Of a stretch of DNA of 64,000 nucleotides, positions 19,098 to 52,276 are shown in pieces. Position numbers and translations under genes: made by a program. Position 1 is the first letter of the stretch. Each line of letters starts with the position of its first letter. The notes beneath the pieces were generated by a model that was given only the letters and a program-made list of their open reading frames with translations, was not told the origin of the DNA and made no database searches. Origin of the DNA: Parcubacteria bacterium DG_74_1 (GTDB lineage Bacteria; Patescibacteriota; Minisyncoccia; Minisyncoccales; DG-74-1); contig LJNE01000006.1 in assembly GCA_001303125.1 (NCBI GenBank), positions 9,169-73,168 of the forward strand, in the 5' to 3' direction.

Positions 19098-22000
19098 TTA
19101 ATTTTTTTTAATTGCTAACCATAGTTTTTGCTGGTCGACCATAATTTCTTTTTCAGCAGCAAAAACTTCTTTTTCTTTTTCTTTTCGGGCCAGATTTTTT
19201 ATCTTACCCTCTTTTAGAATAAGGTTCTTGTTCTTTTCCAGAATTTTGTTTAATCCTCCTGAACCAAAATAGTTTATTGAAACTTTATCTTCTGGTTTAA
19301 AGCGGGCAATTTTTCTCATTTCTTGGATTTGCCGAATAATTTCTCTAATGAACCCTTCTTCTCTCAATCCTGGAGTAATTCTGGTATCAAGCTCTACTTC
19401 TCCTTTAATTTTAGGATCAAAGACTATTTCTTTGACATTGACTTCTTCCTTGATTAGGCTTAATAACTCTGCTTTATTTCTCAATTCATAATTCTTAATT
19501 CTTAATTCATTTAAGGGCTGTCTAACTTTAATTTTTGCCCTAGCTCTCTCGGCTAGACTTTTAGTTACCATCTCTCTGGCTTTCTCCATTTTCTTTTCTA
19601 ATGCTCTACCAATCAATTTTTTACTCGCTTTCGGCCAATTCTCTAAATGAACAGAGTCTTGAATTTTTAATTTTGTCTGCCCTTTAGCGATTTTATCCTG
19701 TTTCGGCAGATTCTTAATTTTTTGATATATTTCTTCGGACAGAAAAGGAATAAATGGAGCGGTCAGCTTGCTTAAGGTCAAAAGTACATATTCTAAAGTA
19801 TCAGCGGCTTCGTCAAAGCGCTTACGCGATCTCCTAATATACCACAGAGAGAAATCATTAATAATAAAATCTTCAATTATTCTAGCGGCCCCAGTTATGT
19901 CGTATTTATCTAGTTTTTGAGTTGCCTCCTGGATAACTCTGTTTAATCTTGATATGACCCATCGGTCCAGTAAAGAAATGGCTTTGTACTGACCCATTTC
20001 TATATCAGAATTTGATTTAAGGTTAAATTTACTTGTCTTAATATCTGTAGCGTAAGTTCTGTAAAAGGTAAAACAATTCCAAAGAGTCAAAATGAATCTC
20101 TTAAGCGCCTGGTCAACATCTTTTTCCGAGAAAAGCTTAGAGTCGTCGGGCTGATTAATAGTGTAAAAATACCAGCGAGTGGCGTCGGCTCCGTATTTTT
20201 CAACAAGATACCAGGGATCAGTCACGTTCCCTTTCGATTTTGACATTTTTTCTCCCTTTTCATCTAAAACATGACCTACCGAAAGAACATTTTTATAGGA
20301 CGGACCCTTTCCAAGTAAAGAGGAGATAGCCAGTAAGGTATAGAACCATCCCCGAGTTTGATCAATTGCCTCTGAAATATATTCGGCCGGGAATTGAATT
20401 TTCTTATTAATCAAAGCTTTGTTCTCAAAGGGGTAGTGATACTGAGCGAAAGGCATGGCTCCGGAATCAAACCAACAGTCAATAACTTCAGGGACTCTTT
20501 CCATTGGGGCGTTACACTTTTGACAACAAAATTTTACTTCATCAATGTAAGGCCGGTGGAAATCTAATTCCATTTTTTCATTATAAGGCAGATCTTTGAA
20601 TTCAAATCTCCTGAGCTCTCCTGTTTTTATTTCTTTTTTCTTGATGATAATTCTTGTAAATCGTTTTAAATCATAGCTATAGTTCGCCTTTTCAAGTAAG
20701 GTTAGGGGTCGTTGATGGCCAATAATTAAAATGTTTTTCCCTTGATGTTTTCTATCAACTTGTTTTAAAAATTCGTACATTCTCTTCTCTATATCAGTAA
20801 AATTTTCTCCTTTCGGAGGATTGACCCGGAAACGCTTTGAATAATATTCCAAGGGAGAGAGTTCTTTTTCTTTGTCCCAAAACCTGCCAATTTCTTTCAC
20901 CGGCCTTCCGTTAAAAATACCAATATTTACTTCCCTAAGTTTTTTACTAAATTTGGGCCTTATTCCCAATTCTTTTCCGGCAATTTCAGCGGTTTGTTTT
21001 GTCCTTAAAAGATCTGACGAAAAGATCAGGTTAATTTTCTCCTTTTTTAATTTTTTGGTAGCTACTTTAACTTGTTCTTTTCCTTCTTTAGTTAAAGGAC
21101 AGGGTATTTTTTCTGGCCAACAAGCGGCAACATCTTTTAAATTTCTCAGGGATGTTCCATGTCTTAAAAGGAAATATTTGTTTTTGCTAAATTTTTGCGA
21201 CACTAAATCTTTCTTCGATCCGATTATTTCAAAACAACCACATTTTTTACATTGCCAAATGGGCAAAGGCGTCCCCCAGTATCTTTCTCTAGTTAAGGCC
21301 CAATCTTTTACTTCTTTCAGCCATTCGCCGAATCTTCCTTTTTTTAAATGGGCTGGAAGCCAGTTAGTTTTTTGATTATTTTTAATTAAATCTTTTTTGA
21401 TTTGAGTCATCCTAATAAACCAGGATTCTTTAGCGTAATAAAAAAGGGGCGAATGGCATCGCCAACAAAAAGGATAATCGTGTTCATATAATTCTCTTTT
21501 GAAAAGGATATTTCTATTTTTTAAATCCTCAATTATTAAGGGGTCAGCCTCTTTAATGAACATTCTCGCCCATTTCTTAACTCCCAACTTAAACCTCCCT
21601 TCTTCATCAACCGTTAAGAGTGTCGGCAAGTTATTCTTCTTGCCTGTTATCATGTCTTCTTCGCCAAAGGCCGGAGCTATATGAACCAACCCAGTTCCCT
21701 CTTCCAGAGAAACAAAGTCAGCCAGAATCACCCTGTAAGCCCCCTTAATAACCTCTTCACTGAAGGGATAGAGCGGTTGGTACCTTAAATCAACTAAATC
21801 TTTTCCCCTAAACTCCTTGACGACTTCTCCTTTCGCCCTGCAGGCCTTTATTCTTTCTTTGGCTAAAATTAAGTATTCTTTGTCAATTTTTACTTTAACG
21901 TAAGTAATTTCTGGGTTTACAGCTACCGCAACATTACCCGGCAACGTCCAGGGAGTAGTTGTCCAGACTAACAGAGAGGCGTTTTTGAATTCTGGATTTA

Positions 22001-22619
22001 AAACTGGAAACTTGATATAAATTGCTGGCTCTCTTATTTTTTCATAACCCAAAGCTACCTCATGACTTGATAGGCTTGTGCCACAACGAGCGCAGTAAGG
22101 GATCACCTTATAGTCTTTATATAAAAGTCCTTTTTGCCAAATTTGTTTAATAATCCACCAAACCGTTTCGATATAGTTCGGCATATAGGTAATATAAGGA
22201 TTTTCTGTGTCTAGCCAGAAGGCGATTCTTTCGGTTAAATTCTCCCAGTCTTTCTTATAATTCCAGACGGATTTCCGACATTTTTTGTTAAACTTAGCAA
22301 TTCCGTATTTTTCTATTTCTTTTTTTGATTTCAGCCCTAATTTTTTCTCAATTTCTAATTCTACCGGTAAACCGTGAGTATCCCAACCGGCCTTTCTCAA
22401 GACTTTAAAACCATGCATGGTTTTATATCGACAGATAATATCTTTAAAAACTCTAGTTAAAACATGATGGAGGCCGGGTTTGGCATTGGCTGTTGGCGGC
22501 CCTTCATAAAATACGAAATTCGGCGTCCTCTTGCGCTTCTGAATAGATTTTTCAAAAATTCTATTTCGCTGCCAAAATGTCAATATTTTCTTCTCAGTCT
22601 TGGGAAAATTTATTTCCAT
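19098..22619 (-). CDS. ileS: Isoleucyl-tRNA synthetase (type 2) carrying an internal histidine-phosphatase domain
   Basis: 1173 aa with HHVLTR-type HIGH, KMSKSKGN and a CP1 editing domain. About 200 extra residues (aa about 481-680) lie between the CKKCG zinc knuckle and DFHRPYID. They carry RHG, SSDLLRTKQTAE and IIGHQ motifs. Confidence 0.95.
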   Translation of the reverse strand: MEINFPKTEKKILTFWQRNRIFEKSIQKRKRTPNFVFYEGPPTANAKPGLHHVLTRVFKDIICRYKTMHGFKVLRKAGWDTHGLPVELEIEKKLGLKSKKEIEKYGIAKFNKKCRKSVWNYKKDWENLTERIAFWLDTENPYITYMPNYIETVWWIIKQIWQKGLLYKDYKVIPYCARCGTSLSSHEVALGYEKIREPAIYIKFPVLNPEFKNASLLVWTTTPWTLPGNVAVAVNPEITYVKVKIDKEYLILAKERIKACRAKGEVVKEFRGKDLVDLRYQPLYPFSEEVIKGAYRVILADFVSLEEGTGLVHIAPAFGEEDMITGKKNNLPTLLTVDEEGRFKLGVKKWARMFIKEADPLIIEDLKNRNILFKRELYEHDYPFCWRCHSPLFYYAKESWFIRMTQIKKDLIKNNQKTNWLPAHLKKGRFGEWLKEVKDWALTRERYWGTPLPIWQCKKCGCFEIIGSKKDLVSQKFSKNKYFLLRHGTSLRNLKDVAACWPEKIPCPLTKEGKEQVKVATKKLKKEKINLIFSSDLLRTKQTAEIAGKELGIRPKFSKKLREVNIGIFNGRPVKEIGRFWDKEKELSPLEYYSKRFRVNPPKGENFTDIEKRMYEFLKQVDRKHQGKNILIIGHQRPLTLLEKANYSYDLKRFTRIIIKKKEIKTGELRRFEFKDLPYNEKMELDFHRPYIDEVKFCCQKCNAPMERVPEVIDCWFDSGAMPFAQYHYPFENKALINKKIQFPAEYISEAIDQTRGWFYTLLAISSLLGKGPSYKNVLSVGHVLDEKGEKMSKSKGNVTDPWYLVEKYGADATRWYFYTINQPDDSKLFSEKDVDQALKRFILTLWNCFTFYRTYATDIKTSKFNLKSNSDIEMGQYKAISLLDRWVISRLNRVIQEATQKLDKYDITGAARIIEDFIINDFSLWYIRRSRKRFDEAADTLEYVLLTLSKLTAPFIPFLSEEIYQKIKNLPKQDKIAKGQTKLKIQDSVHLENWPKASKKLIGRALEKKMEKAREMVTKSLAERARAKIKVRQPLNELRIKNYELRNKAELLSLIKEEVNVKEIVFDPKIKGEVELDTRITPGLREEGFIREIIRQIQEMRKIARFKPEDKVSINYFGSGGLNKILEKNKNLILKEGKIKNLARKEKEKEVFAAEKEIMVDQQKLWLAIKKN

Positions 22620-22627
22620 GATTTTGT

Positions 22628-24169
22628 TTACATTCTCTCTGGAGCAGAAATTCCCATTAAAGCTAAAGTATTCTTTAAAACAATTTTAGTAGCCAAAATC
22701 AAAGCCAAACGAGCTTTTAACAAAGATTTGTCCTTCGCTAAAACCTTACAATCTCTGTAGAATCGATGGAAAGCAGTTGCCAACTCTGTCGAATATTGTG
22801 GTAATCGCTGCACTTGATAATCTTTAGCAGTCTCCTCAATAATCTCTGGTAATCTGATTAGCTGCTTGATCAAGTTAAACTCTGAAGGGTGAACTAACAA
22901 TTTCAGGTTGGAATCTTGGAATCGAGGATCGGAAATTTTTCTCAAGATACTACAGATTCTGGCGTGGGCGTATTGAACATAATAAACTGGATTTTTTTCT
23001 GATTGCTTTTTAGCTAACTCCAAATCAAATTCCATCTGGGTATCCAGCGACTTGGTTAGATATAAGAATCTGGCCACATCAAGGCCAACTTCATCAATTA
23101 AGTCTTCGAGGGTAACTATATTTCCTTTTCTTTTTGAGATTTTCCCCCGTTTTAGCCTGACCACCTGAGAAATTAAAATATCTAAATCTCCTTGGTATCC
23201 TAGCATTTTAGCTATCGCTTTTATTTTTGAAACATGCCCTTGGTGGTCAGCTCCCCAGATATTAATAATTTTTTTAAAACCTCTTTTAATTTTATAATCG
23301 TGGTAAGCAATATCGGTCAGGAAATACGTTGATTGGCCGTTTCTTCTGACTAAAACTTCATCTTTCTGGTTAAACCCTGAAAGGTCTAACCAGAGAGCAT
23401 TGTCTTTTTTGTAAACTAATTTTTTAGTTTCTAAAAAATCGTAGACTTTTTTTATCTTACCTTGGCGATATAGATTTTGCTCCGAAACCCACAAATCAAA
23501 TTTGATTTTCAGCTTTTCTTCTGTAAAACTCCTAATATCACCAAAAATATTTTGACCTAAGAGGTATCCTGCCTCGCTTTCTGATTTCACTTTTTTAAAG
23601 TAAGGTGCCAACCTCCGAATTACACGTTTCAAATGAGGAGTTAAATAACTTTTCCCCTGCCCTAAAGCTGTTCTTCCTAATTCCTGAATTTGAGTATTGT
23701 TTTTGGCGTCGTTAATATAATACTCTCTAAGCGCTCTGTATCCGGCCTTCTCCAAAATATTTGCTAAACAATCACCAAAAAAGGCTCCCCGGCCGTTACC
23801 AACGTGCAAAGGGCCGGTGGGATTAGCTGAAATAAATTCTACCAGAACCTTCTGGTGCTTCCCAATTTTTAATTCTCCGAACTTTTTGTCTCGTTTTAAA
23901 ATCTCCCTTACCTGTTTTTGTAAATGCTCTTTAGAAAGAAAAAAATTAATAAAACCATTCTTCGCCTCTACCCGCTCTAAAATAGTAGATTTTATCTGTT
24001 TGGCGATCTCTTGGGGATTTTCCTTGATCGCCATTGCCACATTAGTAGCGTAATCACCACAATCTTTTGCTGACGATCGGCTCACCTCAACTTCAACCTC
24101 TTTTTTATAGAGATTTTTGATTGCTCTGGCTGTCAATTTTTTGATTTTTTCTTTCATCATTTCCTTCAT
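22628..24169 (-). CDS. argS: Arginyl-tRNA synthetase
   Basis: 513 aa. SANPTGPLHVGNGR, the ADHQGH region, an MSKRKG-like loop (KISKRKGN) and a DALR anticodon-binding C-terminus. Confidence 0.95.
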   Translation of the reverse strand: MKEMMKEKIKKLTARAIKNLYKKEVEVEVSRSSAKDCGDYATNVAMAIKENPQEIAKQIKSTILERVEAKNGFINFFLSKEHLQKQVREILKRDKKFGELKIGKHQKVLVEFISANPTGPLHVGNGRGAFFGDCLANILEKAGYRALREYYINDAKNNTQIQELGRTALGQGKSYLTPHLKRVIRRLAPYFKKVKSESEAGYLLGQNIFGDIRSFTEEKLKIKFDLWVSEQNLYRQGKIKKVYDFLETKKLVYKKDNALWLDLSGFNQKDEVLVRRNGQSTYFLTDIAYHDYKIKRGFKKIINIWGADHQGHVSKIKAIAKMLGYQGDLDILISQVVRLKRGKISKRKGNIVTLEDLIDEVGLDVARFLYLTKSLDTQMEFDLELAKKQSEKNPVYYVQYAHARICSILRKISDPRFQDSNLKLLVHPSEFNLIKQLIRLPEIIEETAKDYQVQRLPQYSTELATAFHRFYRDCKVLAKDKSLLKARLALILATKIVLKNTLALMGISAPERM

Positions 24170-30925: not shown

Positions 30926-32641
30926 TTACTGCCTAAAAAACTTTAATAATTTTACTAAGGGGTGCGCGTTAATAATATTTGCCTTCTCGGCCCACCCCCT
31001 TCTCGCCTGGGCAATACCCAATTCAATATACCTTAATTGATCTTTATGATGAGCGTCGGTATTGATTACCATTTTCACTCCAGCCTCTTTTGCTCTTCTA
31101 ATATTTTGATCGTTTAAATCTAGCCTCTCAGGGCAAGAATTAATTTCCAAAATCACCCTATATTCTTTAGCCGCTCTCAAAATTTTATCAAAATCGCACT
31201 GAAACTCGTCTCTTTTTTTTAGGATTCTCCCAGTTGGATGAGAAATAATATTAATGTAAGGATTTTTCATGGCCCGAATTATTCTTTCTGTCATCCGTTC
31301 TTTTTCTATCTTAAAACTAGAGTGAATTCCGGCAATAGCATAATCTAATTCTTTGAGGGCTTCGTCTTTAATGTCAATTGTGCCGTTATTTAAAATATTA
31401 GTCTCAGCCCCCTGTAAGATTTTGAAATTCTTAAGCTTAGAGTTTACCTTATTAATCTCCTTTCTCTGTCGGGCTAATTTCTTTTCATCTAAACCGTGTT
31501 CAATCCTTAAGAACTTGGTATGATCAGAAATTCCCAAATATTCATAGCCCAATTTCTGAGCTGCCTTAACTAGTTCCTGAATTGAATTCACTCCTCCGTC
31601 CCAACTGGAGTGACAATGCAGGTCGCCCTTAATATCTTGGTAGCCAATAACCCTTGGGAGTTTTCTCTCTAGGGAAGCCTCTACTTCACCTTGATCTTCT
31701 CTCAACTCTGGTTCCATCCACTCCATGCCAAGTTTTTTGTAAACTTCCCCCTCGGTTTTACCGGCAATTATTTTTTTACTCTTAAATAATCCGTATTCTG
31801 AAAGTTTTAATCCTTTATTGATGGCTATCCTTCGGGTAGCTATATTGTGCTCTTTGGACCCAGTAAAATATTGAAGGGCCGAACCGTAACTTTTTTTAGG
31901 CAAAACCCTTACGTCTATATCAAAACCCTCTTCTACCCTGACAGAGCATTTCGTCGAACCCTTACCCCAAACCTTTATCACTTCTGGTTGAGAAACAATA
32001 AAATCCATCACCTTTTGTGGTTTTCTTGAAATAACCAAAAAATCAGCATCGCCGATTGTTTCCTTCATTCTTCTAACTGAGCCCGCATAATCTACTCTTT
32101 CCACTTCTTTTAATGCTTGCAGTTTCGAGTAAATCATTCTGACTCTCGGCAAAATTTCTCCTAAGAGAAATCGTCCTTTGTCTCTCTTCAAAAAAGCAAT
32201 TCCTTCTAGAATGTTTTTTTCAGTCTTCTCATCAAATCCAAATAAATGAGCAACCTGATGAGTTTTGGCAGCTTTTTCTAAATCCTTTAAACTCCTGATG
32301 CCTAACTTCTGATGAAGAACTTTTACCCTCTTTGGACCCAATCCTTCTACTGCTGTTAACTCTTCCACCTGAACAGGTGTTTTTTTTCTTAGATCTTGAT
32401 AATACTTGACTTTTCCGGTTTTTAGATATTCTTCAATCTTTCCTGCAATGCTTTTGCCCACTCCGGGAATTTTTTCCAAAGCTTTAATTCCTCCTTGTTT
32501 ATAAATTTCTTCCACATCTTCTTCTAAGCTTTCTAAGGTAATAGCTGCTTTCTGATAGGCATAAGGCTTAAAGGTTATTCCTTCCATTTCCAAGAAATCA
32601 GCAATCTCATATAAAACATTGGCTAATTCTTGATTCTTCAT
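30926..32641 (-). CDS. polX: Family X DNA polymerase with C-terminal PHP domain
   Basis: HhH motifs (IPGVGKSIAGKI, VEGLGPKR), the palm motif GSVRR..IGDADFLV, and PHP motifs GDLHCHS..SDH. The start is trimmed to MKNQELAN (ATG at 32641). Confidence 0.9.
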   Translation of the reverse strand: MKNQELANVLYEIADFLEMEGITFKPYAYQKAAITLESLEEDVEEIYKQGGIKALEKIPGVGKSIAGKIEEYLKTGKVKYYQDLRKKTPVQVEELTAVEGLGPKRVKVLHQKLGIRSLKDLEKAAKTHQVAHLFGFDEKTEKNILEGIAFLKRDKGRFLLGEILPRVRMIYSKLQALKEVERVDYAGSVRRMKETIGDADFLVISRKPQKVMDFIVSQPEVIKVWGKGSTKCSVRVEEGFDIDVRVLPKKSYGSALQYFTGSKEHNIATRRIAINKGLKLSEYGLFKSKKIIAGKTEGEVYKKLGMEWMEPELREDQGEVEASLERKLPRVIGYQDIKGDLHCHSSWDGGVNSIQELVKAAQKLGYEYLGISDHTKFLRIEHGLDEKKLARQRKEINKVNSKLKNFKILQGAETNILNNGTIDIKDEALKELDYAIAGIHSSFKIEKERMTERIIRAMKNPYINIISHPTGRILKKRDEFQCDFDKILRAAKEYRVILEINSCPERLDLNDQNIRRAKEAGVKMVINTDAHHKDQLRYIELGIAQARRGWAEKANIINAHPLVKLLKFFRQ

Positions 32642-32645
32642 GTTC

Positions 32646-33311
32646 TTATCCTTTAGGCAAATAAGGTTCCTGAAGTCCTTTTGCTTCAGGGGTCCGAGGG
32701 ATAGAATTATCTTTGGGTGCAATATCCTTATAAATCAGAAATGGCAAGAAGGCGCTAGCCAACGCAAAAAATGCTACCCCCATAAACAGAACATCAAAAC
32801 CAAATTTGACAGCAATTACTCCCCCCAAAGCTCCCGATGTGGCCGCTCCAATCCCAATAACGGTACTTCTAGTTGACCATTCAAAGGCTTCTTTCCCCCT
32901 ATCAATGTGACGAGTAAAAATGGCACACCATCCAGGAATATTCATTGCCATCCCTAAAGAATAAACTCCCTGGCACAGATAAATATGCCAAGGTAAATAA
33001 CTAAAAATGTAGCCTAAAACAGCTAAAGTCGCTAAAAAGTTACCAATTACCACGAACCATAAATCATCTCTTTCTCCCCTAATTTTATCTAAATACTGAC
33101 CGAAGGGAATTTGGAAAATTGATTTTACCCCCCAATAAATTCCCATAGTAAAACCGGCTATTTCTGTCGCTTCTATTGTGTCCCCAGCTGTAATTCTTTG
33201 AGCAATAAAAATAGCAAAAATTGGAGTAATAAACCCAAAACCAGTTAGAAGGGCAACGTCAGAAGCAATCATTACCTTAATCACTTTGTCAATTGACTTC
33301 AACATAATCAA
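32646..33311 (-). CDS. Six-TM MFS-like half-size membrane protein
   Basis: 221 aa with 6 TM helices. An MFS motif-A-like loop (GQYLDKIRGERD) lies between TM2 and TM3, and there is no second six-helix half. Confidence 0.5.
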   Translation of the reverse strand: MIMLKSIDKVIKVMIASDVALLTGFGFITPIFAIFIAQRITAGDTIEATEIAGFTMGIYWGVKSIFQIPFGQYLDKIRGERDDLWFVVIGNFLATLAVLGYIFSYLPWHIYLCQGVYSLGMAMNIPGWCAIFTRHIDRGKEAFEWSTRSTVIGIGAATSGALGGVIAVKFGFDVLFMGVAFFALASAFLPFLIYKDIAPKDNSIPRTPEAKGLQEPYLPKG

Positions 33312-40723: not shown

Positions 40724-41983
40724 TTAAAACAAGCTTTTCTGTTTAGAAAGTTTTTTTTGGTCACCTTCAGAAAAGATTCTGATCTTGCCGTAAACTCCAT
40801 CATAGCCAGGTTCAATATAAACCTTGCCTTCCCTAACTCTAATTATTCCCTCGGCGATTTCGGGTAGCGTAACCAGCTCTAATTCAGAACGAGAAGCCTC
40901 AAGTAAAACATTAAACTCAGAGCCAAATTTGTCAATAAGGCTCTTATATTCTGTTTTGGTCTGTTTCGTCCCCGACATTACTCCTAATGTATCGGCAATA
41001 ATTTCTTCTAAGGGAATCAAGCTCTTGAAAGGAAGAGCATTTTCTGGGTTAAAGCCTTCTGGCTTGTCAGCTAATTCGTCTATCCTATTTAAAACGCCAA
41101 TGGTTAAGGGTTTCCCGCAGTTAGGACAGATATTTCCTGCTTTTTTTGATTCTTGAGGAGAGAAAGAAACTCCGCATAATCTATGGCCATCGTAATGATA
41201 TTTCCCTTCTTGAGGAAAGAATTCAATGGTGCTAATTAGCTTTAGGGTTGCCGGCTCCTGACCCTGCCGCTTTATGGCAGTGATAATTGATTGATAAGTT
41301 AACTCGGAGCCCTCAAAAATATTGGCTTCCCGGCCTAATTTGGTTGGACTATGCGCGTCGCTGTTTGAAATTAAGGTAATCCTTCGACCGTCAGGCATGC
41401 GCCAGAGCATATCCGGGCTAGCCGAAAGTCCTGTTTCGCCAGCATAAATATATTCTGAATAGTTTCCGAAGCATTCTTCAATTGAATCAAACCCTGATTT
41501 TGAACCAAACAAAGAAAACCATGGCGTCATTAAGTGAGCAGGAACTATCAAACAATCTTTCGAGGCATTTAAAACAATTTTGGCTAATTCCTTGGCATCC
41601 AGTCCTAAAATGGGTCGGCCATCCGATTTTAGATTACCAATCCAACTTAAATGAGTATTAATTTTCTCAACTATTTCAAAAGAAGGGGCGAAAATTATAA
41701 TATGAATTTTTCTAACTTTTCCTGTTTTGGAATAAACACAGCTAATTTCAGAGGTCAAAACAAAGCGAGCTTCTGGACCGTTCCTTAATTTAAAAAGCCC
41801 TGGTTCGACAGGCTCTAGTGTTTCTTTCAAGCTTTTAAACCAATCGGGATGAGTAAAATCTCCGCTGCCTAAAATTTTGATTCCCTTTATCTTTGCCCAC
41901 TTACCAAGGTTCTCTAAATCCATATCTTTACTGGTCGCCCTGGAGTACCTTGAATGTAAATGAAAATCGGCAATAAATTGCAT
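40724..41983 (-). CDS. endoQ: Endonuclease Q-like PHP-domain nuclease with zinc finger
   Basis: 419 aa. ADFHLHSRYSRA, GSGDFTHP, SDGRPILGL, PAHLMTPW, NSDAHSP, CPNCGKPLTIGVLNRIDELAD and C-terminal PGYDGVYGKIRIF follow the archaeal EndoQ layout as I recall it. Confidence 0.7.
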   Translation of the reverse strand: MQFIADFHLHSRYSRATSKDMDLENLGKWAKIKGIKILGSGDFTHPDWFKSLKETLEPVEPGLFKLRNGPEARFVLTSEISCVYSKTGKVRKIHIIIFAPSFEIVEKINTHLSWIGNLKSDGRPILGLDAKELAKIVLNASKDCLIVPAHLMTPWFSLFGSKSGFDSIEECFGNYSEYIYAGETGLSASPDMLWRMPDGRRITLISNSDAHSPTKLGREANIFEGSELTYQSIITAIKRQGQEPATLKLISTIEFFPQEGKYHYDGHRLCGVSFSPQESKKAGNICPNCGKPLTIGVLNRIDELADKPEGFNPENALPFKSLIPLEEIIADTLGVMSGTKQTKTEYKSLIDKFGSEFNVLLEASRSELELVTLPEIAEGIIRVREGKVYIEPGYDGVYGKIRIFSEGDQKKLSKQKSLF

Positions 41984-42714: not shown

Positions 42715-42807
42715 AAGTTAAGATATTTTAAATTATTTTTTAGCTCGTAGCGGTTTAAAAATAACTTGCTGGGGGAAATATATTAATTAAGCCCCGCTAA
42801 AAATCCA

Positions 42808-43267
42808 CTACAAAGCTTTAAATCGACCTTTGCTAAATTTCTTTTCTTTTTTAATGAGGGTAATTAATCTCTTAACTAGTCTCTGGAGATCTTTCTCGTA
42901 AATAATCTTTTTCACTCCTCGGTGAGGACCGGTAACAATTTTTTATCGGCAGCTTTTGTCATCATAATGTTTCTTTCTATGTAATCTGCTTTGTATAAAT
43001 CATTATATCAAAAGGAGACGAAGGAAGCCGATAGGTTTTTAGGTGAGCCGATTCTGAGGCAGCTGGTGAAAATCCGATACTAAATCCCCAGGCTTTGGCG
43101 CAGCCTAAAGCTGCGAAATAAGGGACGCCGGTTGTTGCTCCGGTAACCAAATTGCATTTCTGCCGGGCAACTTGTCTACCAATCTCTCTCGTTATCTCTT
43201 TTATTCTGCCGCAGCAATGATTGGCCTGGGCAGCTCCGGAAACAACAATCTCAAACTCATCTGCCAT
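42808..43267 (-). pseudogene. Degraded LOG/TIGR00725-like (SLOG Rossmann) gene
   Basis: The 96-aa ORF (42977-43267) has VSGAA..NLVTGATTGVPYFAALGCAKAWGFSIGFSPA..IMIYT and then stops. A shifted frame downstream (to 42808) reads KIVTGPHRGVKKIIYEKDLQRLVKRLITLIKKE. The central GG-GT-E region is missing and there is no Shine-Dalgarno before the ATG. Confidence 0.4.
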
Positions 43268-43316: not shown

Positions 43317-43498
43317 ATGAGGGGGCTCAGTCTTAATAAAATCGGTTAGATCGAATTCGCTGGAGTTGGCCTTAACCAGTGACGTCTTTTAAACCTCCTT
43401 TATCAAATACTGCGGCCTTAGAGAATAACATCTCGCACCCCCTCAATTCAATAATATTCATATGAAAATTAATGTCAAGTCCTGTTCTGTTTAAATTG

Positions 43499-43570
43499 TG
43501 TCCCCACCAGGAGTCGAACCTGGATCAATGGCTCCGGAGGCCATCACTCTATCCATTGAGCTATGGGGAC
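43499..43570 (-). tRNA. tRNA-Arg (anticodon CCG)
   Basis: The 72-nt cloverleaf folded by hand is GTCCCCA-TA-GCTC-AATGGATA-GAGT-G-ATGGC-CTCCGGA-GCCAT-TGAT-CCAGG-TTCGACT-CCTGG-TGGGGAC-A. The anticodon loop CT-CCG-GA has G37. CCA is not encoded. Confidence 0.92.
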
Positions 43571-43574
43571 AAAA

Positions 43575-44267
43575 TTATTTTTTAGCGATTAAATATATAT
43601 TATAATTCTTTGTCTCTTTTCTTCTAAAAATACCTACTTCTTTTACTCTTAGCCCTGTCCCCGTTATCAATTTGTCTAATTCTCTTTTTGTGAAACAATG
43701 AATATAGCGGTCAACTTTATTCTGCCACGGCACAAGAATATCTTTAAAATCTAGTTTCGTCTTCCCTAAAATTTTTAATATAGAAAATTTAATTATTTTT
43801 CTAAAATAGCTATATTGCGGCCAAAGGTTCCAAACGGTTATGAAAAAAATTCCGCCGGGGCGCAAAACTCTTTCAGCTTCTTTTATGAATCGTCTTCTAA
43901 AATAGGTCGAGGGGATATGGTGCAAAACTGCAATACAAAAAATTTTGTCGAAATAACTATCTTGGAATGGTAAATTTAAACTATCTGCTACTAAAAATTC
44001 AGCCCCCGGATTTCTTCTTTTAGCTATTTCGATAAGCTTTTCAGAATTATCTATCCCGATATAAACGATATTTTCACCCTTAAAAAGCTCAAGTAATCTG
44101 CCATTTCCACATCCTAAATCGAGCACTTTATCTCCTTCGTTTATGTATTTACTAAATAAATTAAGCTCTGGCCAGGCTGAGTATCGACTGCTTGAAAAGT
44201 CTTCGGCAATTAGATTATAATCTTCTTGAGTTTTTCTCATTAAATATTCGGCGTATTCTCTTTCCAT
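43575..44267 (-). CDS. Trm9/ALKBH8-like class I SAM methyltransferase
   Basis: YNLIAEDFSSSRYSAWPEL..VLDLGCGNGRL..VADSLNLPFQDSYFDKIFCIAVLHHI..ERVLRPGGIFFITVWN follows the Trm9 pattern (IAxxFSxTRxxxWP, GCGNGK, IAVxHH, RVLRPGG). The start is either the ATG at 44267 (MEREYAEY) or the one at 44285. Confidence 0.7.
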   Translation of the reverse strand: MEREYAEYLMRKTQEDYNLIAEDFSSSRYSAWPELNLFSKYINEGDKVLDLGCGNGRLLELFKGENIVYIGIDNSEKLIEIAKRRNPGAEFLVADSLNLPFQDSYFDKIFCIAVLHHIPSTYFRRRFIKEAERVLRPGGIFFITVWNLWPQYSYFRKIIKFSILKILGKTKLDFKDILVPWQNKVDRYIHCFTKRELDKLITGTGLRVKEVGIFRRKETKNYNIYLIAKK

Positions 44268-45818
44268 ATGGAGATTCTTCAGCAAATAATCAAAGACTTA
44301 ATTAAAGGACAGATTAAAACTTCGACGGAGTTAGTTTCTTTTAAAAGAAGGGTATCAAAAAAATATAAAATTCCTTGTCCGAGTAATATCAAGCTATTAA
44401 GAGCTTATCACGAACTGGTTAAAAATAAAAGTATCAAAAAATCAATGGAATTAGAGGACACACTTAAAACTCGACCGATCCGCTCTCTTTCCGGAGTTGT
44501 TAATGTCTCGGTTCTAACTAAACCCTATCCTTGTCCGGGAAAATGTCTTTACTGCCCGATAGAAAAAGGAATTCCCAAAAGTTATGTTTCCGGAGAGCCG
44601 GCCGTAGAAAGAGCTAAGAAATTAAAATATAATCCTTGCTCGCAAGTTAAAAAGAGGATTGAAATGTTAGGAATTGAAGGACATCCTACAGATAAGATTG
44701 AAATTAGGATAGTGGGAGGGACTTGGAGTTATTATCCCAGGGATTATCAAGCTTGGTTTATAAAAAGATGCTCCGATGCTTGTAATGAGAAGCCTAGTAA
44801 AAATTTAAAAGAGGCTCAAAAACTGAACGAGAAAGCAAAACATAGAATAGTTGGGTTATCAGTTGAGACAAGGCCAGATTTTATTAATAAAAATGAAGTC
44901 AAACGGTTAAGAGATTTGGGGGTAACGATGGTTGAGATTGGAGTTCAGTCAATATATGACAACATTTTAAAATTGAATCAAAGGGGACATGGAGTTAGGG
45001 AGACAATTTTGGCGACTAAGCTCTTGAAAGATGCTGGTTTCAAGGTTTTGTATCAAATAATGCCGAACTTACTTGGCTCCACTCTCAAAAGAGACAAGAA
45101 AATGTTTAAAGAGCTCTTCTCTAATTCTGATTTCCAGCCAGATTTATTAAAAATTTATCCCTGCGCCCTTTTGAAAGAAACCCCGTTATATGAATTATGG
45201 AAAAAGGGTAAATATAAGCCCTACGCACAATCGCAATTGATAAACCTTTTAAAGTCGATCAAAAAGAAAATGCCCTATTATGTCAGGATCCAACGAATTA
45301 CTAGAGATATTCCTTCAAAAATTATTATTGTGGGCCCGGCAAAAATTTCTAATTTGCGCCAGATACTGTTTCAAAAAATGAGGAAGGAGAGATGGCAATG
45401 CAAATGTATCAGGTGCCGTGAGGTTAAGGAAGCATACAATCAAAAAGAAAAAATATATTTTTTCCGTCAGGACTATAAGGCTTCGGGGGGCAGAGAAGTA
45501 TTTTTGAGTTTTGAAAGTAAACAAAAAACAAAACTTTATAGCTTACTCCGTCTCCATTTAACTTCAGATAAACGAGCAATAATACGCGAGCTTCATACTT
45601 ACGGCCAACAACTTTCTTTTTTATATCCCCTTAAGAAGTTAGCGGTCTCACCTCAGCATAAGGGATTAGGAAAAAAATTAGTTAAAGAGGCGGAGAAAAT
45701 TACTAAAAAAGATTTCAAATTAAATAAAATTGCTGTAATTTCAGCCGTTGGAACGAGGAATTACTTCCGCAGATTAGGGTACAGGTTAAAAGATACTTAT
45801 ATGGTCAAGAAAATATAG
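44268..45818 (+). CDS. elp3: Elp3-family radical SAM + GNAT tRNA-modification enzyme
   Basis: 516 aa. RPIRSLSGVVNVSVLTKPYPCPGKCLYCP provides the CxxxCxxC radical SAM motif. A TIM-barrel region (VEIGVQS) and a C-terminal GNAT domain with QHKGLGKKL follow. Confidence 0.88.
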   Translation: MEILQQIIKDLIKGQIKTSTELVSFKRRVSKKYKIPCPSNIKLLRAYHELVKNKSIKKSMELEDTLKTRPIRSLSGVVNVSVLTKPYPCPGKCLYCPIEKGIPKSYVSGEPAVERAKKLKYNPCSQVKKRIEMLGIEGHPTDKIEIRIVGGTWSYYPRDYQAWFIKRCSDACNEKPSKNLKEAQKLNEKAKHRIVGLSVETRPDFINKNEVKRLRDLGVTMVEIGVQSIYDNILKLNQRGHGVRETILATKLLKDAGFKVLYQIMPNLLGSTLKRDKKMFKELFSNSDFQPDLLKIYPCALLKETPLYELWKKGKYKPYAQSQLINLLKSIKKKMPYYVRIQRITRDIPSKIIIVGPAKISNLRQILFQKMRKERWQCKCIRCREVKEAYNQKEKIYFFRQDYKASGGREVFLSFESKQKTKLYSLLRLHLTSDKRAIIRELHTYGQQLSFLYPLKKLAVSPQHKGLGKKLVKEAEKITKKDFKLNKIAVISAVGTRNYFRRLGYRLKDTYMVKKI

Positions 45819-47630: not shown

Positions 47631-48782
47631 TTAGCGACCCAAGAGCTGCAACCTTTTTTGAGCCCTGGCTTTCTCTGAAATAGAAATACTGCTTTTTTGA
47701 ATTCCTTTTTCTAAAATTTCTAAAGTTTTATCGTAGGTCATTCTGTCAACAGGAAAAGGTGTACCATCTTTCCCTCCAACGGAAAAAGTATAACGAGCCG
47801 GATCTTGATAAGAAGGTTTCGCCCCGTAAATTATTTCTGAAACCAAAGAAAGAGCTCTAATTGTCTTTGGGCCTACACCCTTTAACGAAAGAAGTTGCTC
47901 AAAGTTTTTTGGCTCCTTACCCCGGGCTCCAAAAATTATTTTTTCTATCCTTTTTAAGTCAAATTTTTCCTCGACTGTCCAAGTGGAACGAGGACGGGAG
48001 ATGAATGAAAATTCATCGACCACTGGATGCCAGTAGAATTCTTTATTGTATAATTCCATTGTTGTCAGGTTTTTTGATTTTTTCGTCTGAATTAAATTCA
48101 GATCTTTTAAAAATTGCCCTGGCTCCTCTCTAACTAAACCAAGGGAAATTTCCCTGTTGTCGTTACTTTTTTCCGCGGTTAGATTGAGAGGCCTTACCTT
48201 AGCCCCAGAGATAATTCCTGAATGAGGTCTCTCAATAAAATCTTTGACAGCAGAAGATAGCCAATGATAACGGCGGGCCGTCTGATTCTGCGTATTCATC
48301 CCCTGTTGAACAACTACCCAATTGCCTGATTTGGTAAATAAAAAATTATGCTGGTAGATTTGGTAATTATCCTGGATTAAGGAAGAATCAACTTTAGCTG
48401 CCATTTTGGAGGCATAAATTAATTTAGGGGCAAAAGAAAATTGCCGGGAAATTCCGTAGGCCGTAATTTCCTCTGGAGTTTTTCTTGACTCTCTTTTCCC
48501 TCCGCAGACATAAATACCCAACTGGTCTTGAATTTCAAAAAGTCCGGCTTTCAACGCCCCCAGAGTTGTCACCGTCAGCCCCGAAGAATTCCAGTCAAAG
48601 CCCAGAACGCAACCTAAACTCTGAAACCAAACCGGACTTGATAACCTCTTTAAAAATTCTTCCGGGCCAAATTCTTCCACAATAGCTATAGCAATACCTC
48701 GCCCCAATCTCTTCATCCTTTCAAAAAGCCACCTCGGGCACCGTCCATAATCAAGAGGTACTGTAGCAATTCCTGTTCTCAT
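47631..48782 (-). CDS. DUF763-family protein (archaeal-type, HhH motif)
   Basis: 383 aa. ATVPLDYGRCPRWLFERMKRLG..LSSPVWFQSLGCVLGFDWNSSGLTVTT matches my recollection of DUF763. LLSLKGVGPKTIRAL is a helix-hairpin-helix motif. Confidence 0.65.
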   Translation of the reverse strand: MRTGIATVPLDYGRCPRWLFERMKRLGRGIAIAIVEEFGPEEFLKRLSSPVWFQSLGCVLGFDWNSSGLTVTTLGALKAGLFEIQDQLGIYVCGGKRESRKTPEEITAYGISRQFSFAPKLIYASKMAAKVDSSLIQDNYQIYQHNFLFTKSGNWVVVQQGMNTQNQTARRYHWLSSAVKDFIERPHSGIISGAKVRPLNLTAEKSNDNREISLGLVREEPGQFLKDLNLIQTKKSKNLTTMELYNKEFYWHPVVDEFSFISRPRSTWTVEEKFDLKRIEKIIFGARGKEPKNFEQLLSLKGVGPKTIRALSLVSEIIYGAKPSYQDPARYTFSVGGKDGTPFPVDRMTYDKTLEILEKGIQKSSISISEKARAQKRLQLLGR

Positions 48783-50833: not shown

Positions 50834-52276
50834 TTATTCTCCCTTAATTACCGCTAATGGTTTTAATTTTACTACTTTTTTGGACAAGCCAGCGTTATGG
50901 ACTACTCCTACCACGTCGTCAACATTTTTATAGGCCATTGGGGCTTCTTCTGCTATCCCTCGAAGATTCCAACATTTAACAATAATACCTTTGGATTTTA
51001 ACTCTTTTAGCAAATTTTGTCCAGAAACCCTTCTGGTAGCTTCGTGACGAGACATGGTTCTACCCGCGCCATGATTTGTCGAGAAAAATGCGTCTCTCCC
51101 AGTATTTACTCCGACCAGGACATAGGAGGCGGTCCCCATTGAGCCGGGAATCAAAACCGGTTGGCCAACCGCTCGGTATTTCTGAGGAACCTCGGGATGA
51201 CTAGGGGGAAAGGCTCTCGTTGCCCCTTTTCTATGGAGACAAAGTTCTAATGTTTCTCCTTCAATTTCATGTTTCTCGATTTTAGCAATATTATGGGCCA
51301 CATCATAAACTGTAGTTAAGTTTGTAGATTTTTCTCCCAAAACTGACCTCCAGGCCTTCCTGACAAAGTGGGCGATTGTTTGGCGATTGGCCCAAGCATA
51401 ATTGGCTCCGGCAGCCATAGCTGATAGATATTTTTGTCCTTCAGGAGAATTAATCGGGCAGGCAGCTAACTCTCTATCGGGCAATCTTATACCGTATTTA
51501 TCCATCGTCCCCATCATTACCCTTATATAATCAGTAGCAATTTGATGACCTAGGCCCCGAGAACCAGTGTGAATCATGATAACGACCTGTTCTAAAAATA
51601 AACCGAAAATTTCAGCTGTCTTCCCGTCAAAAACTTCGTCTACTTTTTGAATTTCCAAGAAATGATTTCCGGAACCTAAGGTCCCCACCTGGTCTCTGCC
51701 CCTGTTTTTGGCATGATCGGAAACGAGAGAAGCGTCAGCTTGAGGAAGCCTCCCATTCGATTCGCAGCTCTCTAAGTCCTCCTTTTCGCCATAACCCTGT
51801 TCAACTACTCTCTGGGCCCCTCTCTCTAAAATCTTATTAATAGAAGCGGCGTCTAGCTTTATTTGCCTTCCCCGTCCTAAGCCAGAAGGAACTTCTTTTT
51901 GGATTTCTATTGCTAAGCCCTCTAAATAGTTTCTAATTTCTTCTTCTTTATAATCTGATTTTAAAAGCCTCATGCCGCAGTTAATATCATAGCCAACGCC
52001 GCCGGGCGAAATCACCCCACTCTTTATATCCATAGCGGCTACTCCGCCAATTGGGAAGCCGTACCCTTCATGCATATCCGGCATAGCCAAGCTATAATTT
52101 ACTATTCCCGGTAAAGAGGCTACATTAACCAACTGGTCAAGCGATTTATCCCGAAGGGCGCTTTCTAACATTATTTCTGAAACGTAGGCCCTAGCCGCTA
52201 CTCGCATATCTGACCTAAACCCTTTAGGAATCTCCCATAGCGAATCATTAATTTTTATAAAATCAGATTTTTTCAT
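50834..52276 (-). CDS. rtcB: RNA ligase RtcB
   Basis: 480 aa. PDMHEGYGFPIGGV, GYDINCGMR, GSGNHFLE, HTGSRGLGHQ and NHGAGR provide the metal and GMP-His motifs. Confidence 0.96.
   Translation of the reverse strand: MKKSDFIKINDSLWEIPKGFRSDMRVAARAYVSEIMLESALRDKSLDQLVNVASLPGIVNYSLAMPDMHEGYGFPIGGVAAMDIKSGVISPGGVGYDINCGMRLLKSDYKEEEIRNYLEGLAIEIQKEVPSGLGRGRQIKLDAASINKILERGAQRVVEQGYGEKEDLESCESNGRLPQADASLVSDHAKNRGRDQVGTLGSGNHFLEIQKVDEVFDGKTAEIFGLFLEQVVIMIHTGSRGLGHQIATDYIRVMMGTMDKYGIRLPDRELAACPINSPEGQKYLSAMAAGANYAWANRQTIAHFVRKAWRSVLGEKSTNLTTVYDVAHNIAKIEKHEIEGETLELCLHRKGATRAFPPSHPEVPQKYRAVGQPVLIPGSMGTASYVLVGVNTGRDAFFSTNHGAGRTMSRHEATRRVSGQNLLKELKSKGIIVKCWNLRGIAEEAPMAYKNVDDVVGVVHNAGLSKKVVKLKPLAVIKGE

Follow-up and report, generated by a model that had tools for sequence, protein, structure and literature searches.

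Do bacteria possess the two-enzyme route to 5-methoxycarbonylmethyluridine (mcm5U) at the wobble position of tRNA, a modification assigned to eukaryotes and archaea? The question is raised by a pair of divergent genes in Parcubacteria bacterium DG_74_1, located in a 64,000-nucleotide stretch of contig LJNE01000006.1 that we refer to in its entirety as the window. One gene encodes a homolog of Elp3, a radical S-adenosylmethionine (SAM) enzyme with a GNAT domain, and the other encodes a SAM-dependent methyltransferase that resembles Trm9; their start codons abut on opposite strands within a single CATATG (table 1). A first reading, made from the sequence alone, had proposed that the two genes form a co-inherited module for a complete eukaryote-like wobble-uridine pathway. 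Our best overall explanation, to which we assign a probability of roughly 0.7, is a two-gene wobble-uridine module in Patescibacteria (the candidate phyla radiation, CPR; here of the Parcubacteria type), with leaderless expression from signals embedded in the partner gene. This explanation is built on the homology of both proteins and on their conserved linkage, and the chemistry would be that of the characterized archaeal and eukaryotic enzymes.

The gene that begins at 44268, which the sequence-only reading had called a bona fide Elp3, matches the NCBIfam model TIGR01211 over its full length (residues 7–516 against model positions 2–522) with 542.6 bits at a cutoff of 350, and that call therefore stands. 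In Pfam the protein matches Radical_SAM and Radical_SAM_C, with weak matches to ELP3_N and to GNAT (E 6e-4). Its closest solved relative is the archaeal MinElp3 of Methanocaldococcus infernus (6iaz; 459 bits), and the CPGKCLYCP (iron-sulfur), CKCIRC (zinc), and QHKGLG (acetyl-CoA) motifs align with their counterparts in MinElp3; which residues of Elp3 are the Zn and Fe-S ligands is taken from previous work (PMC6367351). The alignment with the Elp3 of Dehalococcoides mccartyi, DmcElp3 (5l7j; 372 bits), begins only at residue 71; thus, the window Elp3 has an N-terminal extension that DmcElp3 lacks. Given that the nearest enzyme is archaeal and not eukaryotic, “archaeal-type” is a more accurate label for this protein than “eukaryote-like,” and we predict that it forms 5-carboxymethyluridine at position 34 (cm5U34) of tRNA. 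The accompanying view that Elp3 occurs in only a few bacterial lineages has to be given up: at least 7,996 proteins, unclassified by domain of life, match DmcElp3 at E ≤ 1e-50, and those among the 120 matches listed that carry names come mostly from Dehalococcoidia or other Chloroflexota bacteria. An NCBI naming model for Elp3 exists as well.

Several lines of evidence place the methyltransferase with Trm9. First, the motifs on which the initial comparison with Trm9 and ALKBH8 was based (IAEDFSSSRYSAWP, GCGNGR, IAVLHHI, and RVLRPGG) are all present, and the PDB chain that matches best by sequence is 5cm2_Z, Yarrowia Trm9 (E 1.7e-18 with the single sequence, E 3e-23 with a profile of the family), in an alignment that spans the Trm9-typical N-terminal (S/T)R-x-x-x-W and C-terminal VPW...RY-x-H motifs. 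Second, we rebuilt Yarrowia Trm9 from the PDB alignment, retrieved named fungal Trm9 proteins with it, and aligned 16 of them; hhalign joins the CPR family to this set with a probability of 100% (E 7e-41, 199 columns, residues 14–230), and the fungal Trm9 hidden Markov model (HMM) scores the window methyltransferase at 112 bits. With the chains of the whole PDB as negative controls, Yarrowia Trm9 reaches 347 bits with this HMM and no non-Trm9 chain exceeds 41 bits, and the other methyltransferases in the fetched loci yield one weak match only. Third, Létoquart et al. described eight residues of yeast Trm9 whose mutation abolishes or strongly lowers activity (R29, D72, H116, W145, W168, R241, Y243, and N271; PMC4678810), and seven of the eight are present in the window protein. 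Counted over 52 Elp3-linked methyltransferases, yeast R29 (R28 in the window), D72 (D73), and W145 (W146) are conserved in all 52, H116 (H117) and its neighbor H115 (H116) in 49 each, R241 (R187) in 47, N271 (N223) in 46, and W168 (W181) in 44, with an aromatic residue at this last position in 51. The GCGNG SAM loop and D73 are invariant in the family, and an AlphaFold2 model (mean predicted local distance difference test score 92.9) has the Rossmann-type strand order, as in class I SAM-dependent methyltransferases. The family profile collects 992 clusters at 50% identity (E ≤ 1e-30); in Joint Genome Institute (JGI) annotation two members are named TRM9 or ALKBH8, and some are named UbiE or generic SAM methyltransferase.

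Some results weigh against so specific an assignment. The eighth residue, yeast Y243, is Ile189 in the window, a variable hydrophobic position that holds Tyr in 17 of the 52 proteins. In Pfam and NCBIfam the methyltransferase matches only generic methyltransferase domains (Methyltransf_11, E 1.7e-23), and classification by curated library had to be abandoned, no NCBIfam model exceeding its cutoff (the best, DVU_1556, reaches 72 bits against 155). The Anaerolineae members score only 36–43 bits with the fungal Trm9 HMM. In a Foldseek search of the PDB an uncharacterized Methanosarcina methyltransferase, 3sm3, is level with Trm9 (2.5e-16 and 3.9e-16, respectively), and thus the fold alone cannot decide the family. 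Compared with fungal Trm9, there is also an extra helix of about 12 residues (152–166) between W146 and the VPW motif. Based on the HMM classification, the hhalign result, and the essential residues taken together, we nevertheless conclude that, as judged from sequence, the methyltransferase is, as had been proposed, a member of the Trm9 family and not a generic Methyltransf_11 protein.

The linkage between the two genes is not due to chance. We scanned 80 loci that contain relatives of the methyltransferase (identity 28–54%), taking one genome per species, and found Elp3 in 61 of them by tblastn with the window protein. Seven of the 80 have too little upstream sequence, which leaves 73 informative loci, and in 58 of these Elp3 lies upstream in divergent orientation to the methyltransferase, either adjacent or nearby, with a gap of at most 185 nt in 51 of the 58. 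Elp3 has another arrangement in three of the 73 loci and was not found within about 6 kb in the remaining 12. One locus with a different layout is from Gracilibacteria (L045, 447–2694), where the two genes form a co-directional operon in which Elp3 ends about 19 nt before the methyltransferase. Exact protein look-up provided five further contexts, and in all five Elp3 is divergent from and adjacent to the methyltransferase. The pair occurs in many lineages of Patescibacteria, in Chloroflexota (Anaerolineae and Caldilineae), in Fermentibacteria, in Acidobacteriota (Ca. Multivorans) with an intervening gene, and on contigs labeled as DPANN archaea (L063 and L069). Wider synteny, comprising RtcB, NIF3, DUF763, an orotidine monophosphate-decarboxylase-like gene, Band 7, Elp3, the methyltransferase, and tRNA-Arg, is limited to the closest relatives, and therefore the conserved unit is the pair itself. 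With 58 of 73 loci linked, the part of the sequence-only reading that saw a co-inherited module holds, and the refuting condition which that reading had set, a lack of linkage in related genomes, is decisively contradicted. In locus L035 both open reading frames (ORFs) are truncated when read with genetic code 11, and either an alternative code or frameshifts may be the cause.

The one bacterial Elp3 in this comparison that has been characterized and crystallized has such a partner too. We reconstructed DmcElp3 from its alignment in the PDB search, identified the D. mccartyi protein, and fetched its locus (CP019867.1, 567446–569543; L087, 4283–6380), in which a Methyltransf_11 gene of 224 aa (CP019867.1, 567446–568120) is divergent from the DmcElp3 gene and stands 43 nt upstream of it. 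With the fungal Trm9 HMM this neighbor reaches 77 bits, and the R, D, HH, W, VPW, RYY, and N positions are retained in it. Thus, DmcElp3 (PDB 5L7J) resembles the window protein in being a bacterial stand-alone Elp3 with a divergent Trm9-like methyltransferase; it differs in lacking the N-terminal extension of about 70 residues (PMC6367351), and the Dehalococcoides genes are separated by a normal 43-nt spacer that contains TATAAT, whereas the spacer in the window is 0 nt.

On the plus strand the junction reads CAT|ATG at 44265–44270, so that the two starts abut and the intergenic distance is 0 nt; the coordinates, the divergent orientation, and the lack of intergenic DNA reported initially were all verified on the sequence. 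Two starts had been offered for the methyltransferase, a TTG giving an ORF of 43575..44285 and an 18-nt overlap with Elp3, and an internal ATG giving 43575..44267 (both on the minus strand). Only the ATG survives: the homologs start at ATG and the residues upstream of it are not conserved, which rules out the TTG, while in an alignment of 25 sequences Met1 is invariant and residues 1–9 are conserved as M-E/D-K/R-x-Y-A-x-Y-L, the top-ranked homologs being mostly 228–240 aa long. Elp3 has no alternative start, its next Met being residue 60, and a conserved N-terminal IIK(E/D)L occupies residues 7–11. An identical Elp3 protein is present on 16 contigs, and on the three of these that we examined, from three different samples, gene callers give a 230-aa methyltransferase at 0 nt from Elp3, which excludes an assembly artefact.

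Table 1. Features at and around the divergent Elp3–methyltransferase junction (window coordinates).
Feature	Position	Strand	Basis
tRNA-Arg(CCG)	43498..43570	minus	ARAGORN and Rfam (68 bits)
Trm9-family SAM-dependent methyltransferase	43575..44267 (including stop codon)	minus	ORF, ATG start, 230 aa
TTTAGA-18-TATAAT promoter-like site	43599..43628	minus	10/12 matches, in last codons of methyltransferase
TTGAAA-18-TATAAT sigma-70-like promoter candidate for Elp3	44192..44221	plus	11/12 matches, in methyltransferase codons 16–26
TATTCT candidate −10 box for Elp3	44254..44259	plus	Inferred; 8 nt before ATG, in methyltransferase codons 3–5
CATATG junction of divergent start codons	44265..44270		Read from sequence
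Elp3, radical SAM and GNAT, predicted tRNA U34 carboxymethyl-forming	44268..45818	plus	ORF, 516 aa
AAGAAT candidate −10 box for methyltransferase	44274..44279	minus	Inferred, weak; 6 nt before ATG, in Elp3 codons 3–4

Tight junctions of this kind recur among the relatives. Starts in the other loci were taken as the codon nearest to the position aligned to the window N-terminus, so that the window sequence guided the choice. On this basis, the gap between divergent starts is −2 nt in 13 loci, where the start codons share the AT of a CATG, 0 nt (CATATG) in five loci besides the window, and no more than 40 nt in about 40 loci overall; it is about 110–185 nt in Chloroflexota and some other groups. 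Abutting (CATATG) or overlapping (CATG) starts are typical of the Patescibacteria. In two Parcubacteria loci the conserved LIKELI motif of Elp3 lies upstream of the gene caller's ATG and could be translated only if Elp3 began at a GTG and thereby overlapped the methyltransferase by 19 nt. Of the classes of gene overlap known in prokaryotes, the divergent one is the least common. The window itself holds two other closely spaced divergent pairs, at 24169/24200 and 53890/53950 (30 nt and 59 nt from start to start), and very short spacing between divergent genes is therefore a feature of this genome in general.

Given that no nucleotide separates the two start codons, any promoter for this pair lies in coding DNA, as had been anticipated, and −10-like hexamers are found within the first codons of both partners. 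For Elp3 the candidate is TATTCT, which has T1, A2, and T6 of TATAAT, and GCGTATTCT recurs before the Elp3 ATG in many relatives, at 6 nt in the CATG loci and 8 nt in the CATATG loci. In the window as a whole, a Shine-Dalgarno core precedes only 6 of 58 genes, and a −10-like hexamer (at least five of six positions) stands 5–9 nt before the start of 9 of 59 genes, compared with 3.2% of other ATGs (p about 1e-4). A perfect TATAAT is situated exactly 8 nt before the start in three genes (18080, 29068, and 30819, all on the minus strand). Because Shine-Dalgarno sequences are hardly used and several genes have TATAAT 6–8 nt before the start, we think that transcription of the two genes probably yields leaderless or near-leaderless mRNAs, and the same pattern suggests that leaderless mRNAs are widespread in this genome. 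Among the 36 tight loci, a −10-like hexamer lies 5–9 nt upstream of the methyltransferase in 53% and of Elp3 in 44%, compared with 17% at random antisense-coding positions, these loci being phylogenetically related and their counts therefore not independent. Codon choice is biased in the same region: Ile7 of Elp3 is encoded by ATA in 16 of 24 cases (background 0.31), a codon that falls in an ATTAT stretch found repeatedly ahead of the methyltransferase start, and Tyr8 of the methyltransferase is encoded by TAT in 13 of 13. For Tyr5 (44253–44255 in the window) the codon is TAC in 13 of the 15 tight loci, whereas the background share of TAC is 0.30; the base concerned is at −13 on the Elp3-sense strand, and the −10 model leaves this bias unexplained. 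Under the leaderless model, the −10 box of each gene would lie inside the first codons of its partner (TATTCT for Elp3 and AAGAAT for the methyltransferase), the two sites for RNA polymerase would overlap, and both genes would share a single point of regulation.

The leaderless part of our explanation, and only this part, competes with the possibility that conventional promoters lie deeper in the partner's coding sequence and produce mutually antisense leaders of about 40 nt, with possible antisense or transcriptional interference. The best promoter-like match of the region is indeed of this kind (44192–44221, 11 of 12 positions), and it would start the Elp3 mRNA about 40 nt ahead of the coding sequence, with a leader antisense to the 5' end of the methyltransferase gene. 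Other observations that count against leaderless expression also favor deeper promoters, namely, that AAGAAT is a weak candidate for the methyltransferase (four of six positions, including A2 and T6) and that −10-like hexamers are not sharply peaked at the leaderless spacing in the window genome but are equally enriched 0–4 nt upstream of its genes; support for leaderless expression is therefore only suggestive. In addition, gene callers sometimes set the two starts 14–33 nt further apart than our window-guided choice. On the other side, the TATAAT at 44216–44221, which coincides with Asp-Tyr-Asn codons, requires AAT for Asn18, and this codon is used in only 14 of 27 tight loci, for which reason we rejected the site as a conserved embedded promoter. 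Furthermore, no comparable minus-strand promoter was found in the first 130 nt of Elp3, and TATTCT at the leaderless spacing is conserved across the CATG and CATATG loci alike. We thus regard deeper promoters as a possible but doubtful arrangement.

As for the chemistry, the stand-alone archaeal-type Elp3 would add a carboxymethyl group to C5 of U34 by means of radical SAM and acetyl-CoA, giving cm5U, and the Trm9-family methyltransferase, which from its homology and its linkage to Elp3 we predict to methyl-esterify cm5U34 to mcm5U34, would then produce mcm5U or a derivative such as 5-methoxycarbonylmethyl-2-thiouridine (mcm5s2U). The methyltransferase could instead be tied to Elp3 without forming mcm5U, acting on another atom or tRNA position, on another carboxylate in the manner of CmoM, or as an accessory or regulator of Elp3. 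CmoM is itself a Methyltransf_11 enzyme that methyl-esterifies a carboxymethyl group, that of 5-carboxymethoxyuridine (cmo5U). Such a role would fit the unconserved Y243, the extra helix at 152–166, the failure of Foldseek to separate Trm9 from 3sm3, and the statement in reviews that there is no direct evidence of xcm5U derivatives in Elp3-bearing bacteria (PMC7663514). It would also fit a further difficulty for mcm5U formation, which is that Trm9 of Haloferax and of eukaryotes needs Trm112, and that a search of the 64-kb window and of flanks of about ±6 kb (less at contig ends) across 86 loci, by phmmer with E. coli YcaR and yeast Trm112 queries and by motif regular expression, yielded no Trm112-like ORF. 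The claim that the pathway is complete is accordingly not borne out. Against a role other than mcm5U formation, the residues proposed to hold the carboxylate and uracil of cm5U are conserved (R28, H116/H117, R187, and N223), and the full-length profile match to Trm9 far exceeds that to other solved methyltransferases; we therefore consider such a role improbable and favor methyl esterification of cm5U. A more far-reaching version of our explanation, which we advance only tentatively, is that CPR bacteria and Chloroflexota including Dehalococcoides make mcm5U-type uridines with Elp3 and a Trm112-independent Trm9, and that the CPR pair is read from mutually embedded leaderless promoters, the −10 box of either gene being made up by the initial 3–5 codons of its partner, so that expression of the two genes would be obligatorily coupled or mutually exclusive. 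Another reading is that genome compaction brought the two genes side by side by accident and that the methyltransferase is an unrelated small-molecule enzyme of the UbiE kind, as the JGI names of some members and the other tight divergent pairs of the window might suggest. It is effectively refuted by the linkage survey, the pair being conserved in at least four bacterial phyla and on DPANN-labeled contigs, at 28–56% identity of the methyltransferase, while its neighbors change, and by the Trm9-specific residues and profile scores.

A tRNA-Arg(CCG) gene lies 4 nt (TTTT) downstream of the methyltransferase stop codon, as first described, and it occupies this position in the 12 closest loci only. 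This tRNA has C34 and is therefore not a substrate of Elp3, and both this and the restricted linkage led us to discard it as a functional part of the module. The promoter-like site in the last codons of the methyltransferase lies about 22 nt upstream of the 5' end of the tRNA, which may thus have its own promoter embedded in the 3' end of the methyltransferase gene. Elsewhere in the window, a 1173-aa class I aminoacyl-tRNA synthetase of the Ile/Val type (19098–22619, minus strand) carries a histidine-phosphatase domain (PF00300, residues 483–661, E 3e-31) inserted such that it splits the halves of the catalytic domain. A SLOG cluster-4 (LDcluster4) gene (42715–43267, minus strand) encodes 96 aa compared with 184–198 aa in related loci, and a 35-aa ORF at 42808–42915 resembles its missing C-terminus, as though an internal deletion or decay had affected the gene. 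Archaeal-type nucleic-acid enzymes are abundant nearby, including a PHP protein (MJ0043_C family), DUF763, the RNA ligase RtcB, and a PolX-PHP polymerase (40724–41983, 47631–48782, 50834–52276, and 30926–32722).

These data oppose current reviews, in that a Trm9-family enzyme is encoded beside Elp3 in several bacterial phyla. One review holds that bacterial homologs of Trm112-dependent methyltransferases are undetectable and confines archaeal Trm9 to Sulfolobales and Halobacteriales (PMC5372719), and another describes Elp3 as essentially limited to a single bacterial clade and sees no evidence for xcm5U derivatives (PMC7663514), while a paper from 2026 mentions Elp3 in “numerous bacteria” (PMC13315578). 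A full-text search of the literature returned no paper on a bacterial Trm9 or an Elp3-linked methyltransferase, an earlier mention of the Dehalococcoides neighbor being possible. Our findings suggest that mcm5U-type tRNA modification may exist in bacteria as well. Since the pair is present in D. mccartyi, a cultivable test system whose Elp3 has already been purified and crystallized, the question of bacterial mcm5U is directly testable with existing reagents. The answer bears on how the Elongator pathway arose in evolution and on the decoding of split codon boxes by CPR bacteria, whose genomes are very reduced. Divergent starts that abut or overlap, for their part, provide a compact natural case of coding-embedded promoters and a test case for leaderless expression in CPR bacteria.

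Among known systems, the leaderless mRNAs of compact genomes share with this pair a −10 element 6–8 nt before the ATG and the lack of a Shine-Dalgarno sequence; compared with other leaderless or overlapping divergent promoters, the putative −10 boxes here are coding sequence of the partner and the starts share a palindrome (CATATG or CATG). The bacterial MnmE/MnmG(/MnmC) and CmoA/CmoB/CmoM pathways arrive at the same functional outcome, a U34 side chain of the xm5U or xo5U type, by enzymes and chemistry unrelated to those of Elp3 and Trm9. Archaea provide a closer parallel: a stand-alone Elp3 is clustered with a Trm9 homolog in Sulfolobus (S. solfataricus; PMC2584109), as it is in the window and in the two DPANN-labeled loci, and a Trm9–Trm112 complex is known in Haloferax volcanii (PMC6144793). 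Unlike these archaeal systems, the window pair has a bacterial host, and its starts abut or overlap divergently. Eukaryotic Elongator (Elp3) and Trm9/ALKBH8–Trm112, which make mcm5U34 and mcm5s2U34, use the same two catalytic families, and fungal Trm9 aligns with the window methyltransferase from the N-terminal Y-N-x-I-A / F-S-x-x-R motif to the C-terminal N-(W/I) motif. The window system differs from the eukaryotic pathway in having no Elp1, 2, 4, 5, or 6 subunits, in the unconserved Y243, in the extra helix after W146, in that Trm112 was not detected nearby, and in an Elp3 that is closer to the archaeal enzyme; its genes are physically paired, whereas the eukaryotic genes are unlinked. By homology and linkage, then, we conclude that the window pair is a bacterial member of the known Elp3–Trm9 pathway, one that is widespread and tightly linked and that has an unusually compact divergent layout.

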